Assembly (NCBI GenBank): GCA_030148485.1
Contig: JASBTJ010000025.1
Span: 23,236-55,235 of the forward strand
DNA length: 32,000 nucleotides
Direction of reading: 5' to 3'
Source: Gammaproteobacteria bacterium
GTDB lineage: Bacteria > Pseudomonadota > Gammaproteobacteria > Chromatiales > Chromatiaceae
This document shows positions 5,736 through 21,777 of this stretch, piece by piece (the first letter of the stretch is position 1; each line of letters begins with the position of its first letter). Below the pieces are notes generated by a model. The model made no database searches and had not been told where the DNA came from. It saw nothing but the letters and a program-made list of their open reading frames with translations. The position numbers and the translations under genes are program-made.

Positions 5736-6259
5736 CTACCGTGGCCGTTGGTGGCCGGGACTCACCGGCTCGGCCGAGATGTGGTACTCGTCGGTCCTCT
5801 TGCCGACCGAATCGGCGAAATATTTGATCAACGACCCGTAGGCCACGCTGAGCAGGCCCGGTAACTCGAGGCCCTCGTCGCGCAGCGGTATCTTCTCGAT
5901 GTTCTGGATGAGGTCAGCCAGGGTGGGCAGGCCGATCATCTTGTTGAAGTCGATGCCCTTGAGCACATCCTGCTGGGCATCAATATTGCGGTCCTCGGCC
6001 GCACCTCCAAGGCCTTGTCCAGACCGGTGCCAACTTTTCCTTGAGGTGTTTGACCTTGGGCCACTGAGCGCTTTCCGGCACCTGGAAGTACTTGCCCGAG
6101 TATTGCTCAGGGTCATTCAGCAGTTTCTTGATGGCAGCCATGTTCCATGAGCTTCTTTCCGAGCGCTTTGCGACGCCGATCGAACAACATGCTGTCCTGC
6201 AGGTCGTCACAGGCACGCAGCAGTAGACCTTCGAGTTGGGACAGGGTCAGTTTGGACGT
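5736..6259 (-). pseudogene. hsdM: remnant of a type I restriction-modification methylase (HsdM) N-terminal region: frameshifted, internally deleted, 3'-truncated
   Basis: Three reverse-strand frames each carry consecutive HsdM_N-like pieces. Piece 1 is (ACG)SKLTLSQLEGLLLRACDDLQDSM at 6259 downward. Piece 2 is MAAIKKLLNDPEQYSGKYFQVPESAQW. Piece 3 is IDAQQDVLKGIDFNKMIGLPTLADLIQNIEKI...LLSVAYGSLIKYFADSVGKRTDEY, which I compare with the HsdM pattern DxxGxxYExLIxxFAxxxGKxxGEFYTP. The expected ATG is ACG, and the frame ends at 5736 with no methylase catalytic domain. Confidence 0.5.
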
Positions 6260-6275
6260 GCGTTATTCGTTCTCG

Positions 6276-7175: not shown

Positions 7176-8226
7176 AGATCATTCCTGCCACTTCGCGGTT
7201 TCGTGGGTCTCCTGTGGCCAGCAAGTCGGCATACGCCAAGACCGGAGGTACCAGCCCCCTCAGGGCCACTTCGTTCTCAAAGCTCAGAAGCTCTGGCCAA
7301 AAGGTTTTGTAGAGGCGCACATTGCCTGGCTCGGCCTGCAGACCATTCGGGGCTTTGCGCAGGCGTGCCTTCGCCAACAGCTTCCCCGCCGCTCCTTCCG
7401 GCAAGTACGCAGTCGCGACCGCTGGTTTCAAATAGTCGGTGTAGATCGCTGCTGCGGTTTCCCCGCCCCAGTAGCCACCAAATTTGCGGATATCGATCTC
7501 CTTCCACCAGTACGGATCCTCTGCCTGGTAGTTGCCCACTAAGAGTTTGGGGCGGAGCTTTTCGGGATAGGCTTCGACCCAACGGTCCAGCATTCGCCGG
7601 TACTCGGTGATGCGCCGTCCTTTACGCTGACCCTTCTCGATAGCCATGCGCGCAACTTTAAGACCCTTCAAGACCTCGCCAACGGTGCCAAGCGCCACAT
7701 CAGCTCTTTCTGCAATGTCACGATACGGGGCATCGATGAGGGCCGGGTCACAAAGGAACGCGAACACAACCTTCAGACCTGTTTTGTCGAATGCGCGATT
7801 CGGGGCCTCTTTTACTGTGGCAGTACCCATAGGCCTGGGCTTACCCGCCACGAACACATACACAGGCGGCTGGTTGATGTAGGCGTTGCCGACGGTATCG
7901 ATGAATTGCACATCTTCTCGTCGTAACTTGTCCGCCATCTTGGGATTGATGTAGTCGGCGACCAGCACGCCCTGCAACGGCAAGGCCTTGATCTGGTGAA
8001 TCAAGGCACCCAGGTTAGCGTGCCCTGCCCAGCGCTTGACCTCTGCCGCCAGGTGGTCGGCCCCTTGAGCCAGCCGGAGCACCGCGTCCAGCTGACGTCT
8101 ATACGCCTTGGTCTCTCGCTGTTCGATGACCAGGCGAAGCCCTGCCTCGCGCTCTACGGCACCTAGGGCACGGTCCAGTACGTCAGCATCGAGATCTTGG
8201 GGTTCCATGGCTCTCTGTCCGTTCAC
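7138..8226 (-). CDS. AbiEi-like transcriptional regulator/antitoxin with an extra N-terminal domain
   Basis: 362-aa ORF. The central part (YRDIAERADVALGTVGEVLKGL) looks like a wHTH. The C-terminal part (...WWKEIDIRKFGGYWGGETAAAIYTDYLKP...LAYADLLATGDPRNREVAGMIYDEYI) resembles AbiEi_3-type antitoxins. It lies immediately upstream of, and overlaps, the NTase gene. Confidence 0.55.
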   Translation of the reverse strand: MNGQRAMEPQDLDADVLDRALGAVEREAGLRLVIEQRETKAYRRQLDAVLRLAQGADHLAAEVKRWAGHANLGALIHQIKALPLQGVLVADYINPKMADKLRREDVQFIDTVGNAYINQPPVYVFVAGKPRPMGTATVKEAPNRAFDKTGLKVVFAFLCDPALIDAPYRDIAERADVALGTVGEVLKGLKVARMAIEKGQRKGRRITEYRRMLDRWVEAYPEKLRPKLLVGNYQAEDPYWWKEIDIRKFGGYWGGETAAAIYTDYLKPAVATAYLPEGAAGKLLAKARLRKAPNGLQAEPGNVRLYKTFWPELLSFENEVALRGLVPPVLAYADLLATGDPRNREVAGMIYDEYIARHCRED

Positions 8227-8279
8227 CGCCCCACAATCGCTCGACTCCGCTCATGACAGAGCCACCCGCGACCCAGGGC

Positions 8280-8337
8280 AATTGTTCACGATATTAGCAC
8301 GTACATTAATAATGTACAGATGCCAATTATGAACAAT
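8280..8337. promoter_or_regulatory. nested inverted repeats upstream of the AbiEi-like gene (candidate operator)
   Basis: Outer arms are AATTGTTCA (8280-8288) and TGAACAATT (8329-8337). The inner palindrome is GTACATTA-A-TAATGTAC (8301-8317). The site is an AT-rich patch 55-110 nt upstream of the start at 8226. Confidence 0.45.
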
Positions 8338-8554
8338 TAGGCTACCCCGGTAACCCCAAGCATCCCCTGCGCTAATGCCTTGCCGCACCTGCCAATCAGC
8401 GCTTTGGTCTGCCTCAAATGAAACGAAAGGGCATCCAGGGAGAAAAGCAACTTCCGCCCGGCCACATGCCCCAAGCCATGCGCAACATCGACAGCCAACC
8501 GACCCGGGTGGCTCGTCCCGCAGGCGATGAGGATTTGTGGCTATCAATGTAGCC

Positions 8555-8591
8555 AGAAAAAGAAAAAGGGCTTGGCCGCAAGGCCAAGCCC
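8555..8591 (-). terminator. rho-independent terminator (minus strand), next to the tRNA-like remnant
   Basis: Minus strand reads GGGCTTGGCC-TTGC-GGCCAAGCCC followed by TTTTTCTTTTTCT, a 10-bp perfect stem. Confidence 0.6.
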
Positions 8592-8598
8592 TTTCTTG

Positions 8599-8610
8599 TA
8601 TGGTCGTGCA
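8599..8610. repeat. candidate distal att remnant (gapped copy of the tRNA-Lys 3' end region)
   Basis: TATGGT----CGTGCA at 8599-8610 matches TATGGTGGGTCGTGCA at 21612-21627, which is the tRNA 3' end plus 2 flanking nt. That is 12/12 identities with a 4-nt gap. Each copy is followed, in the minus direction, by a strong terminator. Confidence 0.3.
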
Positions 8611-8952
8611 CCAACCAAAAAACAACAATAACATACTGTTATTTATGAATAATAATAAATACGACGATAGCTAGAACCCCCATTAATACCCCCTCCAGTC
8701 ATTGCAGCCAGCGTCGAAACAGCGCATACGACAAGCGCTCCCAAGTTGCGCGGCAGCGCCATCAATAGCTCGCTCGTGCTACGGAATAAAGCATGCTGAG
8801 AGCCTATGGACTGGCCAAGTAGCTATGCTACTGGCGCACAGCACCGGCATTCCATACCATCCAAATAACATCGTGCCTTGACCGGTAAAGCTTCTCGACA
8901 AATACCTGCACGTACTGTCCGGCCGGGACCTCCTTACGAAGGAAATAGTCAG

Positions 8953-9150
8953 ATGTGGCTTTCTAAGCAGCAACTAGAAGACCTCACGAAACGGAAAACC
9001 GGCAAGGCCCAGTGTCGCGCGCTCGACTATCTTGGCATTCCGTATCGCGTAGGACTCGACGGGAAGCCGGTGGTGTTTGAACGAGACCTGACCGCCGAGA
9101 CTGACCCTGAGAAACGCACCGAACCAAACTGGGATGCACTGAAGAATTGA
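8953..9150 (+). CDS. DUF4224-like small phage/island protein
   Basis: Internal start of ORF 8878..9150 preceded by AAGGA. It reads MWLSKQQLEDLTKRKTGKAQCRALDYLGIPYRVGLDGKPVV, which resembles the DUF4224 pattern (L-x-x-x-E-L-x-x-L-T-x...Q...L...GIP...G-x-P-V). Confidence 0.55.
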   Translation: MWLSKQQLEDLTKRKTGKAQCRALDYLGIPYRVGLDGKPVVFERDLTAETDPEKRTEPNWDALKN

Positions 9151-9222
9151 AACGAGCGCAGTACATCTTCAACGCAGATCCCTACTGTAAATAAGCGCAC
9201 CTCGACAGCCCAAATCAGGTTA

Positions 9223-9534
9223 TCAATTGCTGGTTAATCCATTCTTCAGCCATTCGGAATAATATGCCAAGCGCTCCGCAACTAACCTGACATCGTGATT
9301 CGGTATGACCACCAGACGGGCCGCATCTGCCTGCAGTTCACCCGCCATGAGGTAAAGGCCTGCGATCAAGGTGGAGTTGCGAGGCGTATTGGCAATTTGG
9401 ATTTGCGCCCGCCGCATAGCAGCGGCTAGATGACGTTCGCATTCGCGCGATTTGGCTTTCGTTTGAGCGCCGTCGCTACGCTTTCCATCCATGTTCCGGC
9501 GGTCGTTGATGTAGGATACATTTGACATAGCCAA
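9223..9534 (-). CDS. hypothetical protein
   Basis: 103-aa ORF in the lower-GC arm of the island, divergent from the RHH gene. No family recognised. Confidence 0.45.
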   Translation of the reverse strand: MAMSNVSYINDRRNMDGKRSDGAQTKAKSRECERHLAAAMRRAQIQIANTPRNSTLIAGLYLMAGELQADAARLVVIPNHDVRLVAERLAYYSEWLKNGLTSN

Positions 9535-9549
9535 ATACCTTTTTCCAAT

Positions 9550-9617
9550 TTATTGTAAAGACAATTATTTTACTGCTATAAGGCCCTGTCAAGTATTTTT
9601 TGTCTTTACTACAATAA
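9550..9617. promoter_or_regulatory. inverted repeat in the divergent promoter region
   Basis: TTATTGTAAAGACA (9550-9563) pairs with TGTCTTTACTACAATAA (9601-9617). The arms are complementary apart from a 3-nt insertion in the right arm and bracket an AT-rich 37-nt spacer. Confidence 0.45.
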
Positions 9618-9621
9618 AGGC

Positions 9622-9801
9622 ATGGCTACTGAACAAAGAAGGCGCCGTGGCGCTCCAAGAAAAGCGGTTACCGCAAGCAAGTTGGTCAACATCCGCGTGA
9701 CGGAAGAACAGCATGCCGCATGGCACGCCGCCGCCATCCGAGACGGCTACAAATCCCTCGCCGCATGGATCAAGAATCTTGCCGACAACAAGTCAGCGTA
9801 A
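9622..9801 (+). CDS. small ribbon-helix-helix-like DNA-binding protein (59 aa, below the ORF-track cutoff)
   Basis: My own translation: MATEQRRRRGAPRKAVTASKLVNIRVTEEQHAAWHAAAIRDGYKSLAAWIKNLADNKSA. The basic N-terminus, a beta-strand (LVNIRVT) and two helices (EEQHAAWHAAA / SLAAWIKNL) fit a CopG/Arc/MobC-type RHH layout. Confidence 0.5.
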   Translation: MATEQRRRRGAPRKAVTASKLVNIRVTEEQHAAWHAAAIRDGYKSLAAWIKNLADNKSA

Positions 9802-9942
9802 CTCGTGATGCTCAATGAACATGAATGCACGGCGGCCCTTCGCCGTCAACAGCGTCAACATGCTCCATCGCGCGCGTGAGACAAGGCCTCATCATTAGCG
9901 TCGGCTTAAGTCTGACGTATACGTTGACGACAGGGGACTGAC

Positions 9943-10158
9943 ATGAATCAAACGACGAGTTCGCGGCAATGGCTGGTTGTTCTAGCAGTGGCACTCGGGC
10001 TAGCAGCTTGGGTGTTTCGGTACGATTTCACCTCTGCACATACGAAGTCTCCTGCCGGATTCGTGCTCGACCGATGGACCGGACAGGTCACGTTCGTGTC
10101 ATACCGTGGACAATTCACGTTGAAACGAAAAACATCCCCTGCCGATGCAGCTCGTTGA
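9943..10158 (+). CDS. small membrane-anchored hypothetical protein
   Basis: 71-aa ORF with AGGGGA Shine-Dalgarno and a single N-terminal TM helix (WLVVLAVALGLAAWVF). Confidence 0.45.
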   Translation: MNQTTSSRQWLVVLAVALGLAAWVFRYDFTSAHTKSPAGFVLDRWTGQVTFVSYRGQFTLKRKTSPADAAR

Positions 10159-10242
10159 TGAGCAACGGCCGTGATTCGCGTAGCCCGCCTGCCCACCCTA
10201 CGATACCCGGCGCCACCTTGTGCACAACGAGCGCGAGACGAA

Positions 10243-13200
10243 TCACCGGCCACCGTCGAACTGACGGATCGCTTGCCGCCGCAATTCCTTCGGCATCGTT
10301 CGTAGGAACCTGTCTTCTGCCGTCATCCGCTTATCCCTCAGCCGCCATTTGATCTGCTGCCTGTTGATGACAATGGGAAGCTGTGGATTGGCCTGATTCC
10401 ACTTCGCAAGCTCCTCCCGTGCTTCGCGAATCATGGTCTTGTCTCGTTCGAAGATCCCCTGTGCCCACTTGTCGGCGATAGCATCCTTCCGCAGCCGGTG
10501 CATATTTCTGTCCTCTGTCAGCATGCGCTTTGCCGCCTGAATCTTGGACACCCGATTGGGATGGAACCCGATCGCCTTCCACACAGATTCTCCGAGCGTT
10601 GCATCCGTGACCTTGCGGTCCTGCCAATCGCGGTACTCGCCGGTCCGCATCATGTCGATGCCCTGCGCGATATGTCCTATTGCACGCGGGGCCAACTCGC
10701 CTCCCGCGCTTTGCAGTTCCCCGCGCGCGACCTTTTCCGCGGCGCGCGTCGCGCTCTGGACTAGCGATCCCGCTGGGCCGAGCAATTCAGCAGTATCCCG
10801 CCCTTTGCTGGGATTGGACGGTACCAGCGCGCCGGTGCCGGGAATCAAATTTCCAAGCGATAACCGAGATTGCACATCGATGGGCATTCCGGGTATGCCG
10901 GACACGCCTTTGAGAAGAATATCGCCGAAGGTGTTGCCCAGCGTCTGGTGCGCCCACTCTTGCAGTTGGCGCTTGCTGTTGGTCGGGTACCCCATCCACT
11001 GTCCGATCGCGTCGATAATATCCTCCAGGTCTTCCGCGAAGGGCAGGCCCTCTAGCCCCGCACCAGCAACCAACAAGGCCAAGGCGATAGCCTTCTGCTT
11101 CGCGGGCAGGCGACCGATGAACTCCAGGTAGTTCACCAAGAACTGCTTGAAGGTGAACAGCGGCGCCCCGATGCCACGCGCCCAGTTTGGCCTGTTGTGG
11201 CGGGCGTATACGAACTGGGTTTCCTCGACGGCTTCCTTGGCGAAAGCGTAGGGGTCTGCCGCCCCTTTGCGTCGAGCAATGTCGTAGGCCGCATTGAATG
11301 TCAATAACCGGTTGTATTGTTCGGCTGTCTGGAAGAAGTATCCCCAGGCGTACAGCGCAATTTGTGCGGGTTGGCTTTGCAGCAGCTTTCCACCACCCAA
11401 TCGCCCACCCCTGGCCGTGGCCATCAGGTTGTATATCTCTTGGGGCGCTACGACGCCTTCTTCCTTGGCGCGTTTAATCGCTTCACGGTGAGCGGGGTCG
11501 GTTGGCGCCCGACCACTCATCCACTTTGCGACCTTGGCCGGTGCTGCTGCATCGAACTGCGTCAGATAAGGGACCGTGACCATCGGCACTTGGGTCAGGT
11601 TCGTGAGGGCCGATGAGATGGATCCGCCCAGGAAGTGAAAGAACATATAACTCCGGATGCCGGAGAATTCCTCGCGTGGATTTTGCAGGTAGTCAACCAG
11701 TCGCTGGGCCTGTTTTTGCACGTCCCCCTGCGACTTAGGAATATCCTGGACGGCTTGCAGCATGTCGCCCATGTTCAGGTTCTTAGAGGCGGCATTCGCG
11801 TTACTGAGTACGAATGAAGCCAGCACACGGCGTAAGTCATTGGAGAAGCCCGGTATCCCCTTCCGCGTAATCAGACGCTTGAGCGCTGAGCGGTTGTTTA
11901 CTGCATTCTTTAGGTATTCCTGCATCGCCGCGTCTTGATCGACACCAAGGTGGCGAGCGAACAGTTCAATGGTTTCTGGAGTCAACCCGGAATACAGCTT
12001 GAACGCCTCGTCGTTCAGCACCCCGGTTTCAATTTCCGCACCCGGGTATTCCGCGCGCATCATGCGAGTCATCCGGTTGGTTTCCGCCTTCGATTCGAAC
12101 ATGCCGAAGTAGACGCGCTTGCCGTCAGCGTCAACGACATCAACCGTGTACTTGCCAAAGCGTGTCAGCGGAAAATAGCCCTCGCGCTTTAACTTCTGTG
12201 CCTTGTTGGCGATCTTCACCAGGTCTTTACGGGACGCATCTACCAAGGCGATCTTTTTCTGCCACTTGGCGGCGCGGGCCTCAGCCCCATCCGTGCCCTT
12301 TGCTAATGCGAGGTTCTCTTCCAGTTCTTCCCGCACCTCGGAAAGGATCCGGTCCAAGTTCTCTTGCACTTCGAACACCGTCTCGGTGCCCTCGCCCAGG
12401 GCCATGTCACCAAGTTCCCGTGGCATACCCAGCTTGCGGGTCATGCGGACCATGGCTGTTTTTGTCAGATCGTCCAGCGAGTGGTGTGCCGATGCGATGA
12501 CCTGCCGGTACAGGCCGATCTGCTTGGCGTTCAGGCCAAATTGCTTAGACAGCTCTTCATCCGCATACACCTTCTGCTGCGCAATGGTTCCCTCGAATAC
12601 GGCGTTGGCCACCAATTCAAGGTCTGCCGTTCGAGCGTTGCCCGTCGTGGCGGCTTTCTTCAAGGTGTCGGACCGGCGGAAAAGATCAGGCGCAAGCCGC
12701 TCCGACCGAATGGCATAAGTTGACGTGTCCGTCATGTAGTCTTCGGCCAAGTTGTAGACCCGGGCGAAGTGGCTATTCTTCTTCGCCAGCCCGCGCATGG
12801 TGCCAACGGACTTCTGCCATAACGTGACCTTGCCGGGGCCGGTGAAGTGATCCTCGGCATATTGGGATGCTGAACGGGACAAATCCCGAACCGCCTTCAC
12901 CCCTTCCACGGGGTCAAAGCCGGATTGCAGGGTACCAGGGCCAGATGCGCCCTTGGGCGGCGTGAGGTCTAGCTGGCCGCCTTCTTCGCGTCCCCGTAAC
13001 GCCAAGGCAAATCCAGACCGGAGTCGTCCCAGCTCGGGATCCTCCCCGTTTCCAGCGCCTCGATCATGATCTGCTCGAGGGCGTCCCCCTGGCCGTCCAG
13101 GCTGACGTACCGCAACAGACCCTCGGGCAAAGGACCAAACCTTTCTCGATACGTCTCGTGTAACTGGATCGGATTCAGCTTGGAATAGTCCATGGTAGAC

Positions 13201-15987
13201 CTCGTAGGCTTTCGGCAGCGCGGCGCGCATCGCGGCCGGCTCTGCAAAGTAGATTACACCAAGTCGGGCAAACAGTTCTGCCTTCACGCGGTCATCGGGC
13301 AAAAGACCGCGGTCAGCAACCGGATACCGCAGCAATCGCGCCAATTCCCCGTTGTTGGAAACGTGGTCGATCGCCTCGCGGGCGATGTCGCCCTTATCCA
13401 AGTCGAGCCGAGGGCTGCTCGCACTGATCGTTCGATCCGCCCCGACCACATCCACGGCATGCAGCAATTCTTCCGCGACGAATGCGGCAGCGGTATCACG
13501 GTGTAGCTGGTACGCCGGGTCGAACTCCACTACGCGGTCATCAAGAGAAAACCGCATGGGAACACCGACAGGTAGCGCCTCATTCGGCACGAAATCCAGG
13601 CCCAGCCGAAGACCGGTGATCTTCTCGGCGTCGGCAATTGCGGTGCCCATGTCCACGGGATCGCTGCCCAATTCGCTGAACGCCGCCTGGGATTTGTTAC
13701 GGGCATCCAGCTTGCCGCTGTCGTTGCTCAGGCTCGCACCAGTGATGTCCTCGGCGTCATACCGCGCCGATGGCGTGAGCTTGCGTTGCCACGCCTGATT
13801 CTTTGGTGACCACCGAAACCCCTTCCCCTTGAGCGCCCGAATCGTCTCCTGCGGCGGCTTCTCGTCATGCTTGATGCGCAGCACACCGGCAGCGTGGTCA
13901 AGTTCGATATGGCCGTCCTCGAACGCGACCGATTCGCTCCCGCCGGTGGATTTTGCCGCGGCAGACTGCGATTCCAGGGCATCCACCCGCTGACGCAGCC
14001 GGCGAATCTCCGCATTGTTGTTGCTCAGCTCGAAGGTCTTGAAGCCGGTGCGGCCTGCGAAATCGGGCTTATTGAGGGCGTCGATTTGCTTGTCCGTCAG
14101 GCCAATATCCAGAAGCTGGGCGCGCTTTTCGCTGTCCTTCAGTTTCTTGCTGCGCAGTACCTTATTGGCCGCCTTCATCTGCTCTTGGGCCTTCTCGCGC
14201 TGGGCGAGCTTGCTCTTGGCTTGAGTGAGCTGTGCTTGGGTGCTGTTGTCGACCGGGCCTTTCGCCAGTTTCTTGAGCCGCTTCACGCCGCGCTCGTAGA
14301 AGGCCATCGCTTCATCAAGCCGCTTATCCGCCGAGCGCATGCGTTTCTCGTTGGCCGCCACCGGGAACTTCGCCGGGCCGGTGATGAACGCGCTGGCTAC
14401 CCGGCCATGTGCACTCAAGTAAGCGCGCAGCTTGTTCGCGTAGCTCTCCCGGAACTGGGGGAAGAATTTCGCAACCCGGGCCCGGCCCGCCTCATCCTTG
14501 ATGCTCGCTTCGACATCACGCCATGCCCGCACCATGTCTTGGACATATTCACGTCGGGCCAGATTGCCGCGCTTATCCGGCGTGTGGCTGGTATTCCGAT
14601 ACGCTTGATAGGCCAGATCGGCGGGGATGTCGTCCTCGACCACCTTCACCGGCAACTGAGTCTCAGCGATCTGTTTCACGCCTTCGTATTGCCCGTCGTG
14701 AACGGCTTGGGCCACCTCGTCAATCTCCGCGCCGCTGCGGGATACCTTCCCTTCGCGGGCCTTGTCCATCAAGGCCTGAACGTCGCCGAACGGATCGTCT
14801 CGGCCCAAGGCTTTGGCGCGCTCTGTGACGGATGCTTGGCCGGTGTCGGCGGCAGGTTGATCGACAGACTCAGGCTTCAGCTGCTCCGGACGGGCCGATT
14901 CGTCTGCCCGCGCTTCCCTGGTTTCCGGTGACTTGGGTTGCTCCTGCTCGGACGGCACAACAGGTTCGGACGGGCGACCAGAAGCCGACTGCGCTACATC
15001 TGATTTGCTTTCGGCCGAATCCGGCGTAATACTTTCATCAAGCTCTGGTTGATTCCGGCCCATCGCTTCGGGCGTATCTGCGACGCCTCCCTCGGGAGTA
15101 GCACGTAAGGGGGTACGGGTCTTCCTGAGCGTTTTCTTTGCAGGTTCCTGGATCAGTCCCTTGCGCGTGTACTTCACGCGGCCGTCGCCCAGGTCTTGCA
15201 TGTCGAACCGCTCGCGCAGTCCCATCTTGTTCAGGCCGCGCAGCCTGGTGGACTTCGGCATGATGATCTCGTCGATGGCATCGTCGGTCACCGCATCCAC
15301 CACGAATTCCTTCCCGCCCACGATGCCAGTTCCTGGTTTTTGGTGCTCCCGACCGCTCAGGGCGTCACCGCGGAACTTCACCAATACCCCCTTGTTCCCG
15401 CCCTGCCCAATCGCCAGCGACTCGTCATCAGTCACGAACATGCCATTGGGGCGAGGCGTAATGTTCTCGTTCTCAGGCTTGGTGCGGTTGTCCAACAGCA
15501 GACTGTCCAACCCATTTTCGTTTGTCTCGCGCCAGTAGCTCCCTGCCGGCAACGGATTCAGTTTGACCGTTGCGCCAAGCCCAATATTCAGGATCCTGCC
15601 AGACTCGATAACCGGGCGACGTTCCGGCAACTCAGTAGCCGCACTGCTATCCTGTGGCGAAGGCTCAGGCGGTGCAGGCTGGTCCTGCGCTGTCCGTGGC
15701 GTCGGCATTGCCACATCCACATTGCCCGGCATTGACCCGGTGCTGGCGTTCTTCGGCGCGGTCCACGCCGGTGGCGCCTGCTGGGGCTGTGGCTGCGCCT
15801 GGGCAGCCTGGACCACTTGGCGTTGGGGCTCGGCCTGCCGCTGGGCATTCGCTGGATCCAGGGCATCCCGGGCAGCCTGATCGACCTGCTTCGGATCCAC
15901 ATGGGCGTCCTCGATACGCCGGAGCACCTGGCCGCCCAGCCGCTCCTGGGGCGTGGCCACGTTGCCGGACGCACCGGCACCGACCAA
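10243..15987 (-). CDS. giant polyvalent-type protein, PLxRFG domain-containing (1914-codon segment downstream of an in-frame TAG)
   Basis: Uninterrupted 5745-nt frame. FPLTRFGKY (PLxRFG motif) is encoded at 12154-12171. A DUF3560-like motif, VAFEDGHIELD...KPPQETIRALKGKGFRWSPKNQAWQR, is encoded at about 13780-13960. P/Q-rich and acidic linkers separate globular blocks. The C-terminal ~900 aa contain hydrophobic helices. The only start is a TTG, and the 24 codons upstream stay open and look coding. Confidence 0.8.
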   Translation of the reverse strand: MVGAGASGNVATPQERLGGQVLRRIEDAHVDPKQVDQAARDALDPANAQRQAEPQRQVVQAAQAQPQPQQAPPAWTAPKNASTGSMPGNVDVAMPTPRTAQDQPAPPEPSPQDSSAATELPERRPVIESGRILNIGLGATVKLNPLPAGSYWRETNENGLDSLLLDNRTKPENENITPRPNGMFVTDDESLAIGQGGNKGVLVKFRGDALSGREHQKPGTGIVGGKEFVVDAVTDDAIDEIIMPKSTRLRGLNKMGLRERFDMQDLGDGRVKYTRKGLIQEPAKKTLRKTRTPLRATPEGGVADTPEAMGRNQPELDESITPDSAESKSDVAQSASGRPSEPVVPSEQEQPKSPETREARADESARPEQLKPESVDQPAADTGQASVTERAKALGRDDPFGDVQALMDKAREGKVSRSGAEIDEVAQAVHDGQYEGVKQIAETQLPVKVVEDDIPADLAYQAYRNTSHTPDKRGNLARREYVQDMVRAWRDVEASIKDEAGRARVAKFFPQFRESYANKLRAYLSAHGRVASAFITGPAKFPVAANEKRMRSADKRLDEAMAFYERGVKRLKKLAKGPVDNSTQAQLTQAKSKLAQREKAQEQMKAANKVLRSKKLKDSEKRAQLLDIGLTDKQIDALNKPDFAGRTGFKTFELSNNNAEIRRLRQRVDALESQSAAAKSTGGSESVAFEDGHIELDHAAGVLRIKHDEKPPQETIRALKGKGFRWSPKNQAWQRKLTPSARYDAEDITGASLSNDSGKLDARNKSQAAFSELGSDPVDMGTAIADAEKITGLRLGLDFVPNEALPVGVPMRFSLDDRVVEFDPAYQLHRDTAAAFVAEELLHAVDVVGADRTISASSPRLDLDKGDIAREAIDHVSNNGELARLLRYPVADRGLLPDDRVKAELFARLGVIYFAEPAAMRAALPKAYEVYHGLFQAESDPVTRDVSRKVWSFARGSVAVRQPGRPGGRPRADHDRGAGNGEDPELGRLRSGFALALRGREEGGQLDLTPPKGASGPGTLQSGFDPVEGVKAVRDLSRSASQYAEDHFTGPGKVTLWQKSVGTMRGLAKKNSHFARVYNLAEDYMTDTSTYAIRSERLAPDLFRRSDTLKKAATTGNARTADLELVANAVFEGTIAQQKVYADEELSKQFGLNAKQIGLYRQVIASAHHSLDDLTKTAMVRMTRKLGMPRELGDMALGEGTETVFEVQENLDRILSEVREELEENLALAKGTDGAEARAAKWQKKIALVDASRKDLVKIANKAQKLKREGYFPLTRFGKYTVDVVDADGKRVYFGMFESKAETNRMTRMMRAEYPGAEIETGVLNDEAFKLYSGLTPETIELFARHLGVDQDAAMQEYLKNAVNNRSALKRLITRKGIPGFSNDLRRVLASFVLSNANAASKNLNMGDMLQAVQDIPKSQGDVQKQAQRLVDYLQNPREEFSGIRSYMFFHFLGGSISSALTNLTQVPMVTVPYLTQFDAAAPAKVAKWMSGRAPTDPAHREAIKRAKEEGVVAPQEIYNLMATARGGRLGGGKLLQSQPAQIALYAWGYFFQTAEQYNRLLTFNAAYDIARRKGAADPYAFAKEAVEETQFVYARHNRPNWARGIGAPLFTFKQFLVNYLEFIGRLPAKQKAIALALLVAGAGLEGLPFAEDLEDIIDAIGQWMGYPTNSKRQLQEWAHQTLGNTFGDILLKGVSGIPGMPIDVQSRLSLGNLIPGTGALVPSNPSKGRDTAELLGPAGSLVQSATRAAEKVARGELQSAGGELAPRAIGHIAQGIDMMRTGEYRDWQDRKVTDATLGESVWKAIGFHPNRVSKIQAAKRMLTEDRNMHRLRKDAIADKWAQGIFERDKTMIREAREELAKWNQANPQLPIVINRQQIKWRLRDKRMTAEDRFLRTMPKELRRQAIRQFDGGR
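12969..13193 (-). CDS. embedded alternative-frame ORF (74 aa) inside the giant gene; status uncertain
   Basis: ATG preceded by GAGGT 5 nt upstream. It reads MDYSKLNPIQLHETYRERFGPLPEGLLRYVSLDGQGDALEQIMIEALETGRIPSWDDSGLDLPWRYGDAKKAAS. By hand count its third-position G+C is 59/74. Over the same stretch the giant-ORF frame scores 36/80 and translates as R/G/P-rich low complexity. Confidence 0.45.
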   Translation of the reverse strand: MDYSKLNPIQLHETYRERFGPLPEGLLRYVSLDGQGDALEQIMIEALETGRIPSWDDSGLDLPWRYGDAKKAAS

Positions 15988-16059
15988 CGCCCCGATGGCC
16001 GCCGACTCCCCAACGCCCTCGCCTGCGGGACGCCCGGTTTCCCGGTTGGATATGACCTG

Positions 16060-17268
16060 CTAAACACCCTCTTGGCCGCCTTCGAACGCGGCCCCGAGGG
16101 TGCGCAGAGTGAGTTGCCCACCGGTGTCGCCAAATAGGCCCAGCTTATTGGTGACCGCCAACAAGCCGGCATTTTGCCAAAAGGCCCGGTCGGCGGCCTT
16201 GGCTGCCGCTTTCTCGCCCTTGCCGTCCGCCATCATCTGCTCATACACGGCGCCAGCCTCTACGGCAGCCTCCATGCCAGCCGCGGCCCCGCTGCCCAGC
16301 CAAAGCCCCATGCGAGGCGACACCGATGCCACAGCTTGGGCGCCCTTTGCCAGCCCCATGCCGGGAACGAAAAACGTCGTGGTCGAGCCGGCACCGGCGG
16401 CCAGATTATCCAGGAAGTTCTGATCTGAAGGCATCAGGTCAGCCGCCTGTTGGGTGACCTTGAGCTGCCCTTCCCGCAAGGCATTGGATCCGGTCATGCG
16501 GGCGGCATAGCCCAGCAATCCCCCGCCGGTTTGGATGGCCCCGGCCGTGAAATCCTTGGCGCCCCGGGTTGCCACTCCTTCGGCCGGGCCTATCTGCTCC
16601 CGGGCGCGCTTGGCGGTCGTGGGTGCGTCGAAGCGGCGACCGTCACCGGCGTCGTCCAGCCCGACCTGACGGCCAGCCAAGTACAGCGCCACATTCGGGT
16701 CACCGCCCACGGGCACCGCATCCGGATTGCCGAACAGGCTGTCCAAGGCCTGACGGAACGCAGTCTGCTCAGGTGCCGCCCGTACGCCGGCCCCGGGGGC
16801 TTTCGCCAGCACCTCACCGGTTACGTCCGGATACAGCGTCTGCACGGCATTTGTGATGGCCCTTTGTTCAGCGGCTTGCCTGGCCCTAACACCACCGCGG
16901 CCGGTGTACCCGAACTGGCCGTCCTGGGGCGCCTCCGGCATCAACGCGCTGAGCATGTCACCCAGCCCTGGGCCGGTCTGCATGATGCCCTTGGTCGGGA
17001 ACGGCTCTGTCGGTATGGCCGGCGTTTCCTGTGGCGCCGGTGGCGCCGTGGCCGCCTGGATCGCACTCAACGCCTCATTGACGCCGGCAATACCTCCGCT
17101 ACCCGGCGTAACCGGTGCCGCCAGCACCGGTGCCACCCCAAACCGCGCCCCGAAGTCCTCCGGCGTCAGCTTGTCCGCATAGTGCTTCTGATACAGGCGA
17201 GTTGCCAGATCGTCGTCTGGCAAGGTGTCGTATTGCGGATACTGAGCGCGGAACTCGGTGATGTTCAT
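16060..17268 (-). CDS. N-terminal segment of the polyvalent-protein frame (402 aa, ends at in-frame TAG)
   Basis: Start MNITEFRAQYPQYDTLPDDDL overlaps the helicase stop as ATGA. It has Ala/Gly/Pro-rich linkers and a Gly/Ala-rich hydrophobic C-terminal region. It is in the same frame as 10243..15987, since 17304-15987 = 1317 = 3 x 439. Confidence 0.7.
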   Translation of the reverse strand: MNITEFRAQYPQYDTLPDDDLATRLYQKHYADKLTPEDFGARFGVAPVLAAPVTPGSGGIAGVNEALSAIQAATAPPAPQETPAIPTEPFPTKGIMQTGPGLGDMLSALMPEAPQDGQFGYTGRGGVRARQAAEQRAITNAVQTLYPDVTGEVLAKAPGAGVRAAPEQTAFRQALDSLFGNPDAVPVGGDPNVALYLAGRQVGLDDAGDGRRFDAPTTAKRAREQIGPAEGVATRGAKDFTAGAIQTGGGLLGYAARMTGSNALREGQLKVTQQAADLMPSDQNFLDNLAAGAGSTTTFFVPGMGLAKGAQAVASVSPRMGLWLGSGAAAGMEAAVEAGAVYEQMMADGKGEKAAAKAADRAFWQNAGLLAVTNKLGLFGDTGGQLTLRTLGAAFEGGQEGV

Positions 17269-18188
17269 TGCATCAAGTCTCCTATAACGTCGACTCCCCA
17301 GCACATTACCCGGCCAGCTTTATCAGGCACGAACTGCTGGCTGGCGCCGTGGTACCAGAGGTTCACAATCCCTTCCCACTCGCCATGTCGCTGCTTAGCA
17401 ACGTTCAGCGTCGCATCAGGCTCACCAGGATCGCGCGCTCTGCCTACGCGGGCGTCCTCCTCCTTCGCCTTGTTGCGATGCACGATGAAAACGTTGTCGA
17501 CTAGGTCGGTAATCTCGGCTGCTCCGCGGATGTCGAACTTGTCCGGACGCCGATGCTCGTTCTCCCCCTTACGCATGTGAGCAATGAGCACGATGTGCAA
17601 ACCGCTTCCCTTGGCAAGCCAGCAGAGGCGATCCACGAAGTTCTTTTGGGCGTTGTAGTCGTCGGTCCCGATGCCGCACTTCATCAGCGAGTCGATGATC
17701 AAAATGTCTGCTTCGAGAACTTCAGCGGCGTAAACGGTCATACCCAAAATGCGGTCGGTTGGCACACTGTCTTGCTGGTCGTAGATCCACAGTCTGCCAT
17801 CAGTCCAAGACAGGAACCCGTCGATGAAACTCCTCGCCGGGGCGGCAGTGCCTGACGCCTGACGAATCATCCGCTGCAGAGTGGCTGCTGGTGGCATCTC
17901 CATGGACGCGATCACGGTCTTAGCTTCGGGAAGGAGCCACAACGCAATCTGTCCAGTGAGCATGGATTTTCCGTGTCCATTAATGCCTGCAGCGATAGTG
18001 ACCTCGCCAGGACGCAGTGCAACATTGGCGTGAGTCTTGGACCAAGGTAGCGGGAAACCACTTTGCTGCTCCTTCCCCGAGAAACGATCGACTACTGCGG
18101 CATGCCATTCACTTGCTGGACGGACACAGTCACCCTCGCGGTTCTGCAGATACTTGGAGAAATCGATATTGTCTGGGATCACTTGCAT
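17265..18188 (-). CDS. DnaB/RepA-like replicative helicase (RecA-fold ATPase)
   Basis: 307-aa ORF with Walker A AAGINGHGKSM and Walker B ADILIIDSL, then LHIVLIAHMRKG and DIRGAAEITDLVDNVFIVHR, as in DnaB C-terminal/phage primase-helicase ATPase domains. Confidence 0.75.
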   Translation of the reverse strand: MQVIPDNIDFSKYLQNREGDCVRPASEWHAAVVDRFSGKEQQSGFPLPWSKTHANVALRPGEVTIAAGINGHGKSMLTGQIALWLLPEAKTVIASMEMPPAATLQRMIRQASGTAAPARSFIDGFLSWTDGRLWIYDQQDSVPTDRILGMTVYAAEVLEADILIIDSLMKCGIGTDDYNAQKNFVDRLCWLAKGSGLHIVLIAHMRKGENEHRRPDKFDIRGAAEITDLVDNVFIVHRNKAKEEDARVGRARDPGEPDATLNVAKQRHGEWEGIVNLWYHGASQQFVPDKAGRVMCWGVDVIGDLMQ

Positions 18189-18535
18189 CGGATTCTCCTC
18201 ACCATCGGCGTCATATCCGGAGATGGCAGGGTTGGCGTTAGGCTCAGCAGGCCCTCTCGCAGCACGTCAACAAGTTTCCCGCTATCCAGGGCCCAAAGTG
18301 TCAGGCTGTTGACCTGGGCTCGGAACAATGCGTCCGAGACCCGGATAGCTGTTTCGAGTTGCGGGGTGGCGAACGACAGAAACACATCGAGGTCATGGAA
18401 CCCGATCAAGTCGTCTACCGGACTGACGTCAATGGCAGCGTGGTATCGCTTTACCTCAGGAACAAGTGTGGCCAGGACGGGGCCTGCAGGGCGCTGGCCC
18501 GCTTTGCGGAGATCAAGTAGGTTGGTGGCGTTCAT
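18179..18535 (-). CDS. hypothetical protein (replication-module associated)
   Basis: Internal start MNATNLLDLRKAG... of ORF 18179..18652. Its ATG overlaps the upstream stop as ATGA and is preceded by GGGGGGA. No family recognised. Confidence 0.6.
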   Translation of the reverse strand: MNATNLLDLRKAGQRPAGPVLATLVPEVKRYHAAIDVSPVDDLIGFHDLDVFLSFATPQLETAIRVSDALFRAQVNSLTLWALDSGKLVDVLREGLLSLTPTLPSPDMTPMVRRIRCK

Positions 18536-18858
18536 ATTCCCCCCTGTCCGTATGCATTCAGCTCTGCCGAGCCAGACTCCGACTTGCTGCGGCTGTCCCA
18601 GTTCCGCACCGCGGCGCGCCAGTCTTTCATGGGCGATTTGCCGACCTTCCAACCCTTGGATGCGTAGAAATCCACGAACCGCTGGGCATCTACGGCGTAA
18701 TGTTTCTCCGCAACGTACTCTGCGACATCATCGACAGAGGGTGGAGCGAACCGCGAAGCGCTACTACCTACCGAAGTAGAAGATGAAGTAGAAGATGAAG
18801 GGGTTGGATTTTGGTTATCGGCGGTGGTTGTGCGTTGTTTGCCAGCTTGCTTAAGCAA
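18532..18858 (-). CDS. C-terminal part of the replication-initiation protein, in the -1 frame relative to the DUF1376 ORF
   Basis: A Ser/Thr-rich linker is followed by VDDVAEYVAEKHYAVDAQRFVDFYASKGWKVGKSPMKDWRAAVRNWDSR. I recognise this motif from the C-termini of phage/island replication-organiser proteins. The only start is a TTG inside a hairpin, and it overlaps the DUF1376 ORF by 91 nt. Confidence 0.6.
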   Translation of the reverse strand: MLKQAGKQRTTTADNQNPTPSSSTSSSTSVGSSASRFAPPSVDDVAEYVAEKHYAVDAQRFVDFYASKGWKVGKSPMKDWRAAVRNWDSRSKSESGSAELNAYGQGGI

Positions 18859-19211
18859 GCTGGATTCCCGCCCTTTTTCCCGGCTTCTCTACGTATCGCG
18901 CTGATTTCTTCGTCCTTAACCATGCGCTTGTTGAAGATAACGCCGGTGTCGGGATCCACGCGCAGGCACCCGAAGTCGATCAAGGTGGTTAATGTGGTCG
19001 TAAGGGTTTGGTTATCCAAACCGGGCAGCCTGGCGAGCGCCGGCTCGGGCATCTTTTTGCCGTTGAGCAACAGCTTCCCGCGCTCAGCCGACTCATGCAT
19101 GATGCACAGGATCTCAAAGTAAAGGCCTCGCTCGAAGTAACCGAGCGCCTGTACTGATGGGTCTTTCCGCCAGTCTGCTGGGTAGAATTGAAAAGACGGT
19201 GCTTTGGCCAT
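18768..19211 (-). CDS. DUF1376 (YdaU-like) replication-associated protein, zero-frame product
   Basis: MAKAPSFQFYPADWRKDPSVQALGYFERGLYFEILCIMHE... is the canonical DUF1376 N-terminus. GAGGTGA Shine-Dalgarno lies upstream. The last ~30 codons (PPPITKIQPLHLLLHLLLR) look non-coding. Confidence 0.75.
   Translation of the reverse strand: MAKAPSFQFYPADWRKDPSVQALGYFERGLYFEILCIMHESAERGKLLLNGKKMPEPALARLPGLDNQTLTTTLTTLIDFGCLRVDPDTGVIFNKRMVKDEEISAIRREAGKKGGNPACLSKLANNAQPPPITKIQPLHLLLHLLLR
18842..18881 (-). promoter_or_regulatory. candidate -1 programmed ribosomal frameshift cassette
   Basis: Minus strand reads GGG-AAA-AAG in the zero frame (18881-18873), then a 9-nt spacer GGCGGGAAT. After that comes a perfect 22-nt palindrome CCAGCTTGC-TTAA-GCAAGCTGG (18863-18842). 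The -1 frame is open from the TAG at 18890-18892, just upstream of the slippery run, through to the stop at 18532. Confidence 0.4.
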
Positions 19212-19407
19212 AGCTCACCTCACTATCGGCCAGTCGCCAATCGTACGACCCCAAGCAATACACTCGCTGATCGTGCGAGGGGGTGAACTGGCTCCCTGAT
19301 ACCGGCGCCATGCTCCCTTGTCGTACCGCCCGACGGAGAGTAGCCCGCACTCCACAGCTGACGCAGGATCAGCGCCTCGACCGCGGCCACCACCGCACGG
19401 GGCATTA

Positions 19408-19683
19408 CTATGCGTGGGCATAGACGCCGCCCAACACACCCCTATCAGCAGACTTACGCGCGGCCTCGAGCTTTTCAACAAGGGCGCGGATGTCGTCTTC
19501 TGACTTACCGGCGATCCGCGCCGCATTCAGAGCGTCGATTTCCCCCGCAGGCCAACCAACCGCACGGGCTCCCAAGCTCACCGGCTTGGGCCATAGGCCT
19601 TGCGAAATTCGGAGATAGATCGTGGACCGGGCGAGACCGGTTTCAGATTTGACGGCAGGAAGCCGGAGGATCGTAGTGGTCAT
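19408..19683 (-). CDS. alpA: AlpA-family regulator/excisionase
   Basis: Internal start of ORF 19408..19821 preceded by GGAGG. MTTTILRLPAVKSETGLARSTIYLRISQGLWPKPVSLGARAVGWPAGEIDALN is the AlpA/prophage CP4-57 HTH pattern. Confidence 0.8.
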   Translation of the reverse strand: MTTTILRLPAVKSETGLARSTIYLRISQGLWPKPVSLGARAVGWPAGEIDALNAARIAGKSEDDIRALVEKLEAARKSADRGVLGGVYAHA

Positions 19684-19750
19684 CGTTCGCCTCCATCGGC
19701 GTTTCTTAGATGACTTCAGACTCTCCCCTACGGATGCCCATAAACCAGCT

Positions 19751-20230
19751 TCAGGTTGTTGGGTATCGTTGCGGCCGCTCGTGTTTGTAGCGGGGCAGGC
19801 CGCCAGCAGAATGCCACGCATTCTGGACGGCCTTAAACTTCCAATTCATGCGCCGAGCGACCCTCTCTTGCGCGGTCTTCACGACAATTGATTCGCCGCG
19901 ACTAAACATCGTATCGAGCTCTTGACTCACGAGAAGATGACTGAACGCATCGGTTCGCAGACGTGTGTTTGGCCGCCCGCCAACGCTCTCTATGTTCAGT
20001 GCACGCTTAATAGGAATATCATCAACCAGGTAATCACGCAGACACCCGCCCAAATAACGCAATGCGACCAGATCAGCTTCACCGACTGAAGTGCCCAGCT
20101 CAAGACCATTAAGTGCAACGAGAGCGTGCTGGAGTAAAGCACGCCCGGCCTTATCGTCACCGCGTGACGCCAACTTCACCAAGCGCTTTCTGTGAGGCGT
20201 GGCAAGCCGTTGTTTACGAGCGCGAGTCAT
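19751..20230 (-). CDS. hypothetical protein
   Basis: Start MTRARKQRLATPHRKRL lies 8 nt after the integrase stop. 159 aa. No family recognised. Confidence 0.5.
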   Translation of the reverse strand: MTRARKQRLATPHRKRLVKLASRGDDKAGRALLQHALVALNGLELGTSVGEADLVALRYLGGCLRDYLVDDIPIKRALNIESVGGRPNTRLRTDAFSHLLVSQELDTMFSRGESIVVKTAQERVARRMNWKFKAVQNAWHSAGGLPRYKHERPQRYPTT

Positions 20231-20237
20231 ATCCGCA

Positions 20238-21449
20238 TCATCTGGCCGTTCGAATAGGCACAACCTCCGCCCCTGACCTCAAGTGTTCCAAGTATTCGGC
20301 CCAGGCCTGCATCATCTTCCGTCTCTCGGGGAGATGCTCGGCGTAGTTGTAGGCAGCCCTAACCCCGTTGCGCTCAGCATGTGCCAGTTGCCGCTCGATA
20401 GCGTCGTGGTGCCAGCCCTGCTCATTCAGAAGTGTCGATGCCATCGACCTGAAACCATGGCCAGTCATCTGCTCTTTGGTGTAACCCAAGCGCCGCAAGG
20501 CGGCGTTGACAGTGTTTTCGCTCATAGGTCGGTCCTTCGACCGAACGCTGGGGAATACGTACTTCCCCTTCCCCGTCAGCGGCTGAATCTCTTCCAGGAC
20601 GGCCACTGCTTGATCTGACAACGGCACGATGTGAGGGGCCGGCATCTTCATTTTCTCAGCCGGAATGCGCCACTCAGCCGTCTTGAGGTCAATTTCATCC
20701 CATTCAGCGCGCCTAAGTTCACCTGGGCGGACGAAAACTAGCGGCGCCAGACTCAGGGCACACTTCGTCAGAAGATGCCCCTCATAACCCTCTATGGCCC
20801 TCAGCAGCTCCCCAATGGCCTTCGGGTCAGTGATCGAGGCATGGTGCTTCTTCCGGACCGGTGGCAGCGCCCCTCTTAGATCCCCAGAGGGGTCCCGATC
20901 TGCACGACCAGTAGCCACGGCATACCGGAAAACCATGCCGCAATACTGCAACGCCCGGTGAGCCGTATCCAGGGCCCCCCGGGATTCGATTCGGCGGATA
21001 GTTCTCAGGAGCTCAGGGGCATCAATTTCGGCGATTGGCTGGCTTCCGAGCCACGGGTATAAGTCCTTCTCCAGAAGCCTCTTGCTGCGCGTGCTATGGC
21101 TTTCAGACCATCGAGGAGAATTCTTGTCGAACCACTCCTGGCCGATGGCCTCGAAAGTATTCGCCCCCTGCTCCGCCTTCGCGTACTTGGCGGCCCTTTT
21201 AGCCACACCGGGGTCAATGCCATCAACCAGCAGCTTTCGGGCGTCAGTGCGCTTCTCACGGGCTTTCGCGAGTGAGACTTCAGGATAAGGCCCGAGGGAG
21301 ATGAGCTTCTCTTTCCCGTTGATCCGGTACTTGAGTCGCCAGCCCTTACGGCCGTTAGGATTCACCAGGAGAAACAGGCCATGCCCATCGAAGAGCTTGT
21401 AGGGCTTGTCCTTGCCTTTTGCCTTGCGAACCGCGGTGTCTGTCAGCAT
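20238..21449 (-). CDS. int: tyrosine recombinase, P4-type integrase
   Basis: MLTDTAVRKAKGKDKPYKLFDGHGLFLLVNPNGRKGWRLKYRINGKEKLISLGPYPEVSLAKAREKR is a DUF4102-type N-terminal arm-binding domain. The C-terminal catalytic region contains HGFRSMAST ... LAH ... Y. It lies adjacent to tRNA-Lys. An alternative ATG is at 21464. Confidence 0.9.
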   Translation of the reverse strand: MLTDTAVRKAKGKDKPYKLFDGHGLFLLVNPNGRKGWRLKYRINGKEKLISLGPYPEVSLAKAREKRTDARKLLVDGIDPGVAKRAAKYAKAEQGANTFEAIGQEWFDKNSPRWSESHSTRSKRLLEKDLYPWLGSQPIAEIDAPELLRTIRRIESRGALDTAHRALQYCGMVFRYAVATGRADRDPSGDLRGALPPVRKKHHASITDPKAIGELLRAIEGYEGHLLTKCALSLAPLVFVRPGELRRAEWDEIDLKTAEWRIPAEKMKMPAPHIVPLSDQAVAVLEEIQPLTGKGKYVFPSVRSKDRPMSENTVNAALRRLGYTKEQMTGHGFRSMASTLLNEQGWHHDAIERQLAHAERNGVRAAYNYAEHLPERRKMMQAWAEYLEHLRSGAEVVPIRTAR

Positions 21450-21555
21450 TTGGGGGTACCCCATGCGTCAATGAGTCCGGCTACCCCAGGAAATACCCCC
21501 GCGAGGGGTAGCTTTTACCGGATCAGGATAGACGCCACTGGACAGTCGAGGCAAT

Positions 21556-21579
21556 AAAAAAGCCCGCGTTATGCGGGCT
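21556..21579 (-). terminator. rho-independent terminator downstream of tRNA-Lys
   Basis: Minus strand reads AGCCCGC-ATAAC-GCGGGCT followed by TTTTTT. It lies between the tRNA 3' end and the integrase gene, inside the proposed element. Confidence 0.6.
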
Positions 21580-21613
21580 TTTGTACTGCATTGGACCTTA
21601 ATGGTCCGGAATA

Positions 21614-21689
21614 TGGTGGGTCGTGCAGGATTCGAACCTGCGACCAATTGATTAAAAGTCAACTGCTCTACCAACTGAGCTAACGACCC
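21614..21689 (-). tRNA. lysT: tRNA-Lys (anticodon UUU)
   Basis: The reverse complement reads GGGTCGTTAGCTCAGTTGGTAGAGCAGTTGACTTTTAATCAATTGGTCGCAGGTTCGAATCCTGCACGACCCACCA. It is 76 nt, cloverleaf-compatible, with anticodon loop CTTTTAA and an encoded CCA. From memory it matches enterobacterial tRNA-Lys(UUU). Confidence 0.95.
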
Positions 21690-21777
21690 TTTTTCGCTTC
21701 GAACGGGGCCGCAATGTCCCCGAAACGAAGCGCGGATTATACAGAAGGCAACGTCGCCTTCAAACCCTTTTTACCGA

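Follow-up and report, generated by a model that had tools for sequence, protein, structure and literature searches.

A single in-frame TAG interrupts the gene of a giant polyvalent protein in a gammaproteobacterial assembly that holds many in-frame stops

The window analysed here, a stretch of 32,000 nucleotides (positions 23,236 to 55,235 of contig JASBTJ010000025.1, assembly GCA_030148485.1) from an uncultured gammaproteobacterium of the Chromatiaceae, carries on its minus strand the gene of a giant PLxRFG protein that is interrupted by one in-frame TAG. From ATG 17268 a single frame runs to a stop at 10243, its sole interruption being the TAG at 16062-16060, which is codon 403 counted from this ATG and is directly followed by CAG. 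The open reading frame (ORF) upstream of the TAG (16060..17304) encodes 414 amino acids (aa) when read from GTG 17304 and 402 when read from ATG 17268, and the GTG is 2354 codons away from the final stop. ATG 17268 is the true start of this upstream part; it has AGGAG 10 nucleotides upstream and overlaps the stop of the preceding helicase gene as ATGA. Downstream of the TAG the frame stays open for 1938 codons, which cannot be due to chance. The 24 codons between the TAG and the first listed downstream start, TTG 15987 (hereafter the spacer), hold no in-frame ATG or GTG, and neither an AGGAG-like site at proper spacing nor any other ribosome-binding site was found upstream of this TTG. The G+C content by codon position is 0.75/0.62/0.79 in the spacer, against 0.71/0.53/0.75 and 0.66/0.45/0.71 in the flanking coding parts. 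The initial annotation of the window had described two ORFs in one frame with this TAG as the only interruption of 2354 codons, a spacer lacking ATG and GTG, a TTG lacking a convincing Shine-Dalgarno sequence and about four-fifths G/C at spacer third positions; all of these numbers hold, as does its translation of the spacer. The sole plausible reinitiation start after the TAG is GTG 15900 (codon 457; 15898-15915, minus strand), which has GAGGA 7 nucleotides upstream and sits just beyond the conserved domain described below; this GAGGA may be a chance occurrence.

For protein searches the TAG was read as a sense codon. With residues 230-480 as query, 11 proteins of 1766-3788 aa were found to run through the junction, with up to 59% identity. 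An exhaustive HMMER search with residues 1-470 returned 628 clusters at E<=0.001, and the match crosses residue 403 in 149 of the 150 listed relatives, the exception being the 402-aa product of the window itself. After re-alignment, all 154 homologues span positions 395-411 and 151 of them present Gln at position 403, within a motif (E-G-x-Q-E-x-x-Q-[QE]-x-I-S-N) that is among the best-conserved columns of the domain. At the 16 homologous loci for which the codon was read, position 403 is encoded by CAG (11 loci) or CAA (5 loci). No stop and no gene junction occurs at this column in any of the 154 aligned homologues, and no stand-alone homologue ends there, either among the HMMER matches or in the re-alignment; the homologues are single ORFs, with relatives of 1766-5074 aa. 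The spacer keeps the near-invariant I406, S407, N408, G426 and G430, and TTG 15987 corresponds to an Ile/Leu/Val column (428) inside the conserved domain. These alignments establish that the two ORFs are one gene and that the TAG derives, by one C-to-T change, from a near-invariant CAG (Gln) codon in the middle of the N-terminal domain. This bears out the earlier views that the spacer is coding and that CAG is one substitution away from TAG, and the proposed check for fusion in homologues returned a fused protein in every aligned case.

A genuine arrangement of two genes that share a frame by chance had also been proposed, and the ORF caller does list two ORFs. This explanation is refuted by the alignment, in which none of the 154 homologues has a stop or junction at the site; all are fused and none ends alone at the codon-403 column. 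Both the spacer and the TTG belong to a conserved domain, and no ribosome-binding site accompanies them, which is not the picture of a split gene. We therefore give it practically no credence, and the 1914-aa ORF opening at the TTG is listed only as an artefact, produced when ORFs are called past the TAG.

The protein, of about 2341 aa, has a conserved helical domain in its N-terminal part, modules that vary in the middle and a PLxRFG domain at the C-terminus. The latter matches NF032893 (PLxRFG domain-containing protein) over profile positions 2-680 of 681 with 496.6 bits, well above the curated cut-off of 100, and the first 90 residues match positions 5-90 of the phage profile phrog_10691 (3925 positions). 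Pfam recognises no domain in the giant protein and has no model for its N-terminal domain, which had no match in the deposited phage or plasmid records. The helical domain with the motif E-G-x-Q-E-x-x-Q-Q-x-I-S-N is common to at least 628 protein clusters. An AlphaFold model of this domain, built from 13 sequences, contains helices only, with moderate confidence (pLDDT 63.5); in this model residue 403 is predicted to lie in helix 171-196 and the TTG in the next helix, 205-220. A fold search returned weak matches only (E>=0.004), all to the first fragments of other podoviral giant proteins, and the confidence of the model is too low for naming the fold.

As one of three possibilities, the initial annotation had named regulated amber read-through with a short and a long product. 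Programmed read-through that sets the ratio of two such products is known for the Q-beta coat/A1 proteins and for retroviral gag-pol, and the 1938 open codons past the stop, as well as the sequence TAG followed by CAG, would fit such a device. The stop is however not conserved, as not one of the 154 homologues is interrupted in this column or close to it, and it would cut a predicted helix of a conserved domain. The downstream RNA is not unusually structured (fold z=-1.36, with 20 of 200 shuffled sequences at least as stable), and no promoter-like or terminator-like site was found within 15600-16500. Since neither these features nor a suppressor tRNA (see below) could be found, the proposal receives no support as a device specific to this gene and is considered very improbable.

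No close relative of the island that carries this gene, or of the gene itself, was found in the 60 related genomes searched, and the genome and metagenome contigs searched for relatives gave only distant matches. The best match in the protein database is 47% identical and covers the middle region only, no match was found among the deposited phages or plasmids searched, and the same genome contains no second copy of the gene.

While RF1 was being checked, an in-frame TAG was met in the gene of RF2, which prompted a scan of the assembly (3.2 Mb, 97 contigs, 91.6% complete, about 62% G+C). The scan used a codon-usage score and looked for stops with strongly coding sequence before and after them in one and the same frame; internal stops were first sorted by reading the translations and then confirmed by Pfam, and the P-values given below are indicative only. 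An earlier test, requiring at least 250 codons on each side of the stop, gave no TAG excess; it was too coarse and was replaced. The Shine-Dalgarno pattern was tried for the classification of gene boundaries, did not discriminate, and was replaced by Pfam domain envelopes.

At least 21 further in-frame TAGs were identified outside the window (loci L030-L049 and L127-L129; Table 1), inside conserved genes on many contigs, which makes at least 22 with the giant gene. In 18 genes a single Pfam domain envelope spans the TAG, and in three more the stop separates domains that belong to a single protein. With three TAA cases included, at least 25 conserved genes of the assembly carry an in-frame stop (22 TAG, 3 TAA, 0 TGA). 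Apart from these three TAAs, the TGA and TAA cases of the scan proved to be plain ends of genes with a new start behind them, and the ten best in-frame TGA candidates were all gene boundaries, none being internal; many of the TAG cases are inside conserved genes. Some of the genes interrupted by TAG are essential, including prfB, bamA, rpoH and dapD. The three genes with a TAA (slmA-like, cpdA-like and ABC-F) are dispensable in E. coli. Besides its TAG, prfB (L010, about C81:9733) still has the in-frame TGA that normally marks its programmed +1 frameshift site.

The corresponding codons of relatives were checked at ten of the 21 further TAG sites, using one genome of the same genus (where the stretch was present) and other members of the family. 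In these relatives the site is a Glu codon (GAG/GAA) in seven genes (uvrB, rimK, hom, glgC, rpoH, bamA and trpE), a Ser codon (TCN) in ilvC (ketol-acid reductoisomerase) and aceF, and a Gln codon (CAG) in prfB (RF2). None of the ten sites has a stop in the relatives, and no TAG is common with the same-genus genome. The residue replaced is invariant in ilvC (Ser), in uvrB, hom and trpE (Glu) and in prfB (Gln). When the giant gene is included, the 11 sites comprise nine G:C>T:A and two G:C>A:T changes, and none at an A:T pair. For RF2, the 120 closest proteins in a large database are all uninterrupted; none exceeded 97% identity, so no independent assembly of the same strain was present among them. 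A preceding C is found at 9 of 11 Glu sites, against a base rate of 57%, and no C precedes the sites in dapD and smc. A CpG-specific CGA>CTA process, or one creating CTAG, was considered as the cause of the TAG bias and dropped.

The machinery of termination and suppression was investigated in the same assembly. No tRNA with a CUA, UUA or UCA anticodon was present among the 32 tRNAs found, the extra candidates of a relaxed ARAGORN run, all scoring under the default threshold, were false positives, and no PylS was found above the cut-off; at 91.6% completeness, the absence of a CUA tRNA or of the pyrrolysine (Pyl) machinery is unproven. RF1 is intact, with its PxT (P-E-T) and GGQ motifs. TAG closes about 15% of the genes, and no excess of back-up (tandem) stops follows the terminal TAGs. 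The signs expected of a reassignment were thus not seen: RF1 is neither lost nor altered, and genes neither avoid TAG as their last codon nor back it up with a second stop more often than expected. The sites do not agree on one residue either (Glu in seven, Ser in two and Gln in two, giant gene included); no single inserted amino acid restores all of them, which counts against a clean reassignment. Reading TAG as one amino acid, Gln or Glu, was rejected because the invariant residues replaced differ (Ser, Glu and Gln).

From these data we infer that the TAG of the giant gene belongs to an assembly-wide class of in-frame stops. Null alleles of RF2, BamA, RpoH, DapD and others cannot coexist in a living cell, and as a class the stops must consequently be either artefactual or read through. 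We tentatively prefer the first option, to which we attribute not quite an even chance: as a class, the in-frame stops may be artefacts, or sequence that is not representative of the living population, namely errors of the consensus, changes that stem from damage, or minority variants that the assembler has fixed. The giant gene would then be intact in vivo, where one long protein would be made. The intact RF1, the normal use of TAG at gene ends and the failure to find back-up stops, a CUA tRNA or PylS in the assembly speak in favour of this reading. Several observations weigh against it. The 22 TAG, 3 TAA and 0 TGA compare with 61, 25 and 14% expected from uniform substitution and the codon usage of the genome (P(TAG>=22 of 25)=0.003), the skew becomes larger still under the G:C>T:A spectrum seen at the TAG sites, and errors that arise blindly should show no preference for TAG. 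Furthermore, conserved neighbourhoods totalling about 46-53 kb hold no or one frameshift-like junction, so the assembly is not indel-ridden. Its contigs are long, which points to decent coverage, and with such coverage wrong substitutions seldom enter the consensus.

The second option is that the ambers are real and are read through genome-wide, owing to a suppressor tRNA on unassembled DNA or to poor termination at UAG. The in-frame TAGs would then act as leaky missense changes and could persist even in essential genes, and the giant gene would give a major 402-aa product and a minor full-length one, the latter being wild type if Gln is inserted. We regard this as unlikely, if far from negligible. 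It is supported by the TAG excess (22:3:0, P=0.003) and by the occurrence of TAG in essential genes too and of TAA only in genes that are dispensable in E. coli. The nine G:C>T:A and two G:C>A:T changes at 11 sites read as a natural mutation spectrum, frameshifts are few, and with only 32 tRNA genes assembled a suppressor could be missing. Pervasive amber read-through at such a scale in a wild bacterium would, to our knowledge, be unprecedented. Neither a CUA tRNA nor a Pyl system was found in the assembly, RF1 is intact, TAG is used normally at gene ends with no enrichment of tandem stops, and the replaced residues (Glu, Ser and Gln, some of them invariant) could not all be restored by a single insertion. 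The same-genus genome moreover has sense codons at every checked site that it covers. On the other side, near-cognate tRNAs are able to read UAG in E. coli (PMC4333366), and purifying selection on bacterial genes with in-frame stops has been reported (PMC7918605). An uncultured gammaproteobacterium with at least two dozen tolerated ambers might represent a natural "ambiguous intermediate" of stop-codon reassignment, of which the split giant gene would be one symptom; this proposal, too, is rather doubtful.

A recent nonsense mutation that inactivated or split the protein, as already proposed in the initial annotation, fits the codon change itself, a single transition at a Gln codon, and the gene does show what is expected of a pseudogene, namely an in-frame stop where its relatives have a sense codon. 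According to this explanation, a private CAG to TAG mutation in a cargo gene of the island would leave a young pseudogene or a 402-aa fragment only, and reinitiation, e.g. at GTG 15900, might give an N-terminally truncated product. The island lacks virion genes, so that selection on an injected protein may be relaxed; the genome has no second copy of the gene, and a frameshift may have disrupted the replication gene next to it as well. The state of the remaining gene argues against such a history, as no other lesion is present in 2340 codons and the PLxRFG domain is complete. Computed over the 1938-codon frame, 3.4% of all possible single-base substitutions would create a stop, so that some 29 random substitutions, equivalent to about 0.5% divergence if neutral, should on average bring one more stop. 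As no second stop has appeared, the lesion must be young, be selected around or not be real. In addition, the same lesion occurs in at least 21 other genes, in which no knockout would be tolerated, and a separate cause for this one is not parsimonious. These similar TAGs make a private mutation only the third likeliest explanation, and an improbable one. Any explanation other than an artefact, genome-wide read-through or a private mutation is, all such explanations taken together, quite remote.

The gene is located in an island of about 13-17 kb (window about 5000-21690) that adjoins the tRNA-Lys gene, the only tRNA gene in the window. Besides the integrase next to this tRNA gene, the helicase to which the giant gene is translationally coupled and an overlapping AbiE pair at the far end (Table 1), the island contains an excisionase-like gene, a replisome-organiser-like gene and small unknown ORFs. 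No virion genes and no type IV secretion or conjugation genes were detected in it, and no direct repeat of the tRNA-Lys 3' end of at least 12 nucleotides was found to mark the far border. The homologues whose context was seen are located at the end of the structural (virion) module on podovirus-like contigs of about 40 kb, which carry a P22-type coat or an SU10-type adaptor. A tRNA-Lys island with a polyvalent gene but no delivery genes may be a satellite-like element or a remnant. The replisome-organiser-like ORF (19211-18768, minus strand) ends in odd sequence, while an alternative frame over 18179-19211 of the same strand goes on through a linker rich in Ser and Thr to a C-terminal domain that looks well formed (ORF 18652-18179). 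A frameshift, either real or programmed, could account for this; searches of 300 genomes of the class and of phage records returned no homologue of this gene.

An island lacking virion genes would require a helper, and it can be imagined that a helper phage with TAG recoded as Gln allows this late gene to be fully translated only during helper infection. The residue replaced is indeed Gln, as in TAG-recoded phages (10.1101/2021.08.26.457843). Nevertheless, just 1 of the gene's 129 Gln positions is TAG, the remaining island genes are free of in-frame TAGs, and the assembly yielded no suppressor tRNA. The homologous phages use the standard code, and the further in-frame TAGs are on the chromosome, mostly in place of Glu or Ser. 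We consider the chance of such a helper slight in the extreme.

Table 1. Features of the window and in-frame stops of the assembly. Plain numbers are window positions; positions such as C64:19742 give the contig label of the assembly and the position on it, and L labels denote loci examined.
Feature	Position	Strand	Basis or remark
Whole ancestral gene, 2341-aa PLxRFG polyvalent protein with codon 403 as sense	10243..17268	-	Frame, domains, start site
Upstream piece, 402 codons, ending about 35 residues short of the conserved-domain end	16063..17268	-	N-terminus matches profile phrog_10691
In-frame TAG replacing a near-invariant Gln codon	16060..16062	-	Sequence and homologue alignment
24-codon spacer, coding, last part of conserved N-terminal domain	15988..16059	-	Alignments, G+C at third positions
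Listed 1914-aa ORF opening at TTG 15987	10243..15987	-	ORF list; TTG inside conserved domain
Conserved all-helical N-terminal domain, about residues 230-440	15949..16581	-	HMMER, alignment, AlphaFold
C-terminal PLxRFG ("tail-700") domain, complete	10282..12180	-	NCBIfam NF032893
DnaB-like helicase, translationally coupled to the giant gene via ATGA overlap	17265..18188	-	Annotation of island
Integrase	20238-21464		Island gene beside tRNA-Lys
tRNA-Lys	21614-21689		Only tRNA gene in window
AbiEi-like regulator, 362 aa	7138-8226	-	Overlapping AbiE pair, far island end
AbiEii-like nucleotidyltransferase, 299 aa	6276-7175	-	Overlapping AbiE pair, far island end
aceF TAG	C64:19742		Pfam envelope spans stop
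trpE TAG	C54:51304		Pfam envelope spans stop
ilvC TAG (L034 codon 66)	C6:1314		Pfam envelope spans stop
rimK TAG	C79:30467		Pfam envelope spans stop
uvrD-like TAG	C61:51682		Pfam envelope spans stop
hom TAG	C57:31666		Pfam envelope spans stop
prfB TAG (L039 codon 161)	C81:8956	- (of L039)	Pfam envelope spans stop
fliI TAG	C57:34842		Pfam envelope spans stop
rimO TAG	C60:19919		Pfam envelope spans stop
Molybdopterin oxidoreductase TAG	C51:42255		Pfam envelope spans stop
glgC TAG	C12:59804		Pfam envelope spans stop
AcrB-family pump TAG	C54:4678		Pfam envelope spans stop
Amino-acid permease TAG	C16:19175		Pfam envelope spans stop
CCP/MauG peroxidase TAG	C92:1925		Pfam envelope spans stop
Amidase TAG	C30:56847		Pfam envelope spans stop
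dapD TAG	C73:561		Pfam envelope spans stop
smc TAG	C57:16913		Pfam envelope spans stop
trkH TAG	C36:62789		Pfam envelope spans stop
rpoH TAG	C45:14010		Between domains of one protein
bamA TAG	C73:15053		Between domains of one protein
uvrB TAG	C26:12272		Between domains of one protein
slmA-like TAA (L046 codon 161)	C52:5415		Internal to gene
cpdA-like TAA (L114 codon 85)	C76:26062		Internal to gene
ABC-F protein TAA (L110 codon 161)	C30:68856		Internal to gene

For annotation purposes, the locus should be described as one 2341-aa polyvalent protein, or a pseudogene thereof, and not as a 402-aa protein and a 1914-aa protein starting at TTG. With at least 25 conserved genes hit, single in-frame stops in this assembly cannot be interpreted as biology one by one. 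Taken alone, the amber in the giant gene is an ordinary finding, and it is the genome-wide pattern that is noteworthy. If the TAGs are real, they would represent a rare natural case of pervasive amber tolerance, in which early stop-codon reassignment is directly testable; if not, they document a TAG-biased consensus error, mostly G:C>T:A, of a type that inflates pseudogene counts.

SupE is an amber suppressor type of E. coli, and reading of this UAG as Gln, by suppression of this type or by near-cognate tRNA-Gln, would restore the ancestral residue at codon 403; the present genome differs in that no suppressor tRNA was found in its assembly, RF1 is intact and most of the other TAGs replace Glu or Ser. 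Near-cognate tRNAs have been reported to insert Gln, Tyr, Lys, Trp and Glu at UAG in E. coli (PMC4333366). The in-frame stops described in conserved bacterial genes by Belinky et al. 2021 (PMC7918605) are similar in that a nonsense codon stands in an otherwise intact gene, with many cases per genome. That study counted only stops common to at least two genomes, thereby excluding sequencing errors, while the stops reported here are not common to the relatives tested and may still include errors. The TAG-to-Gln recoded phages of Borges et al. (10.1101/2021.08.26.457843) likewise have in-frame TAG at Gln positions of late or virion-type genes of a mobile element; here one TAG stands against 129 Gln positions, no suppressor tRNA was found in the assembly and the relatives use the standard code.

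Finally, the polyvalent proteins described by Iyer, Burroughs, Anand, de Souza and Aravind 2017 (PMC5512222) provide the closest frame for the gene product. Unlike them, the present gene is found in a tRNA-Lys island with no virion genes, is coupled to a helicase gene, contains one TAG and has no Pfam domain, and it is neither within nor beside a DNA-delivery module of virion or conjugation genes. As with them, the product is a very large protein of several domains that a mobile element encodes (here 2341 codons, on an island that also has an integrase), its C-terminal PLxRFG domain is complete and scores higher than the curated cut-off, and its relatives carry LPD38/LPD39, ART-PolyVal, InPase and PBECR domains. 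Polyvalent proteins are thought to be injected into the recipient cell along with the DNA of the mobile element (PMC5512222).

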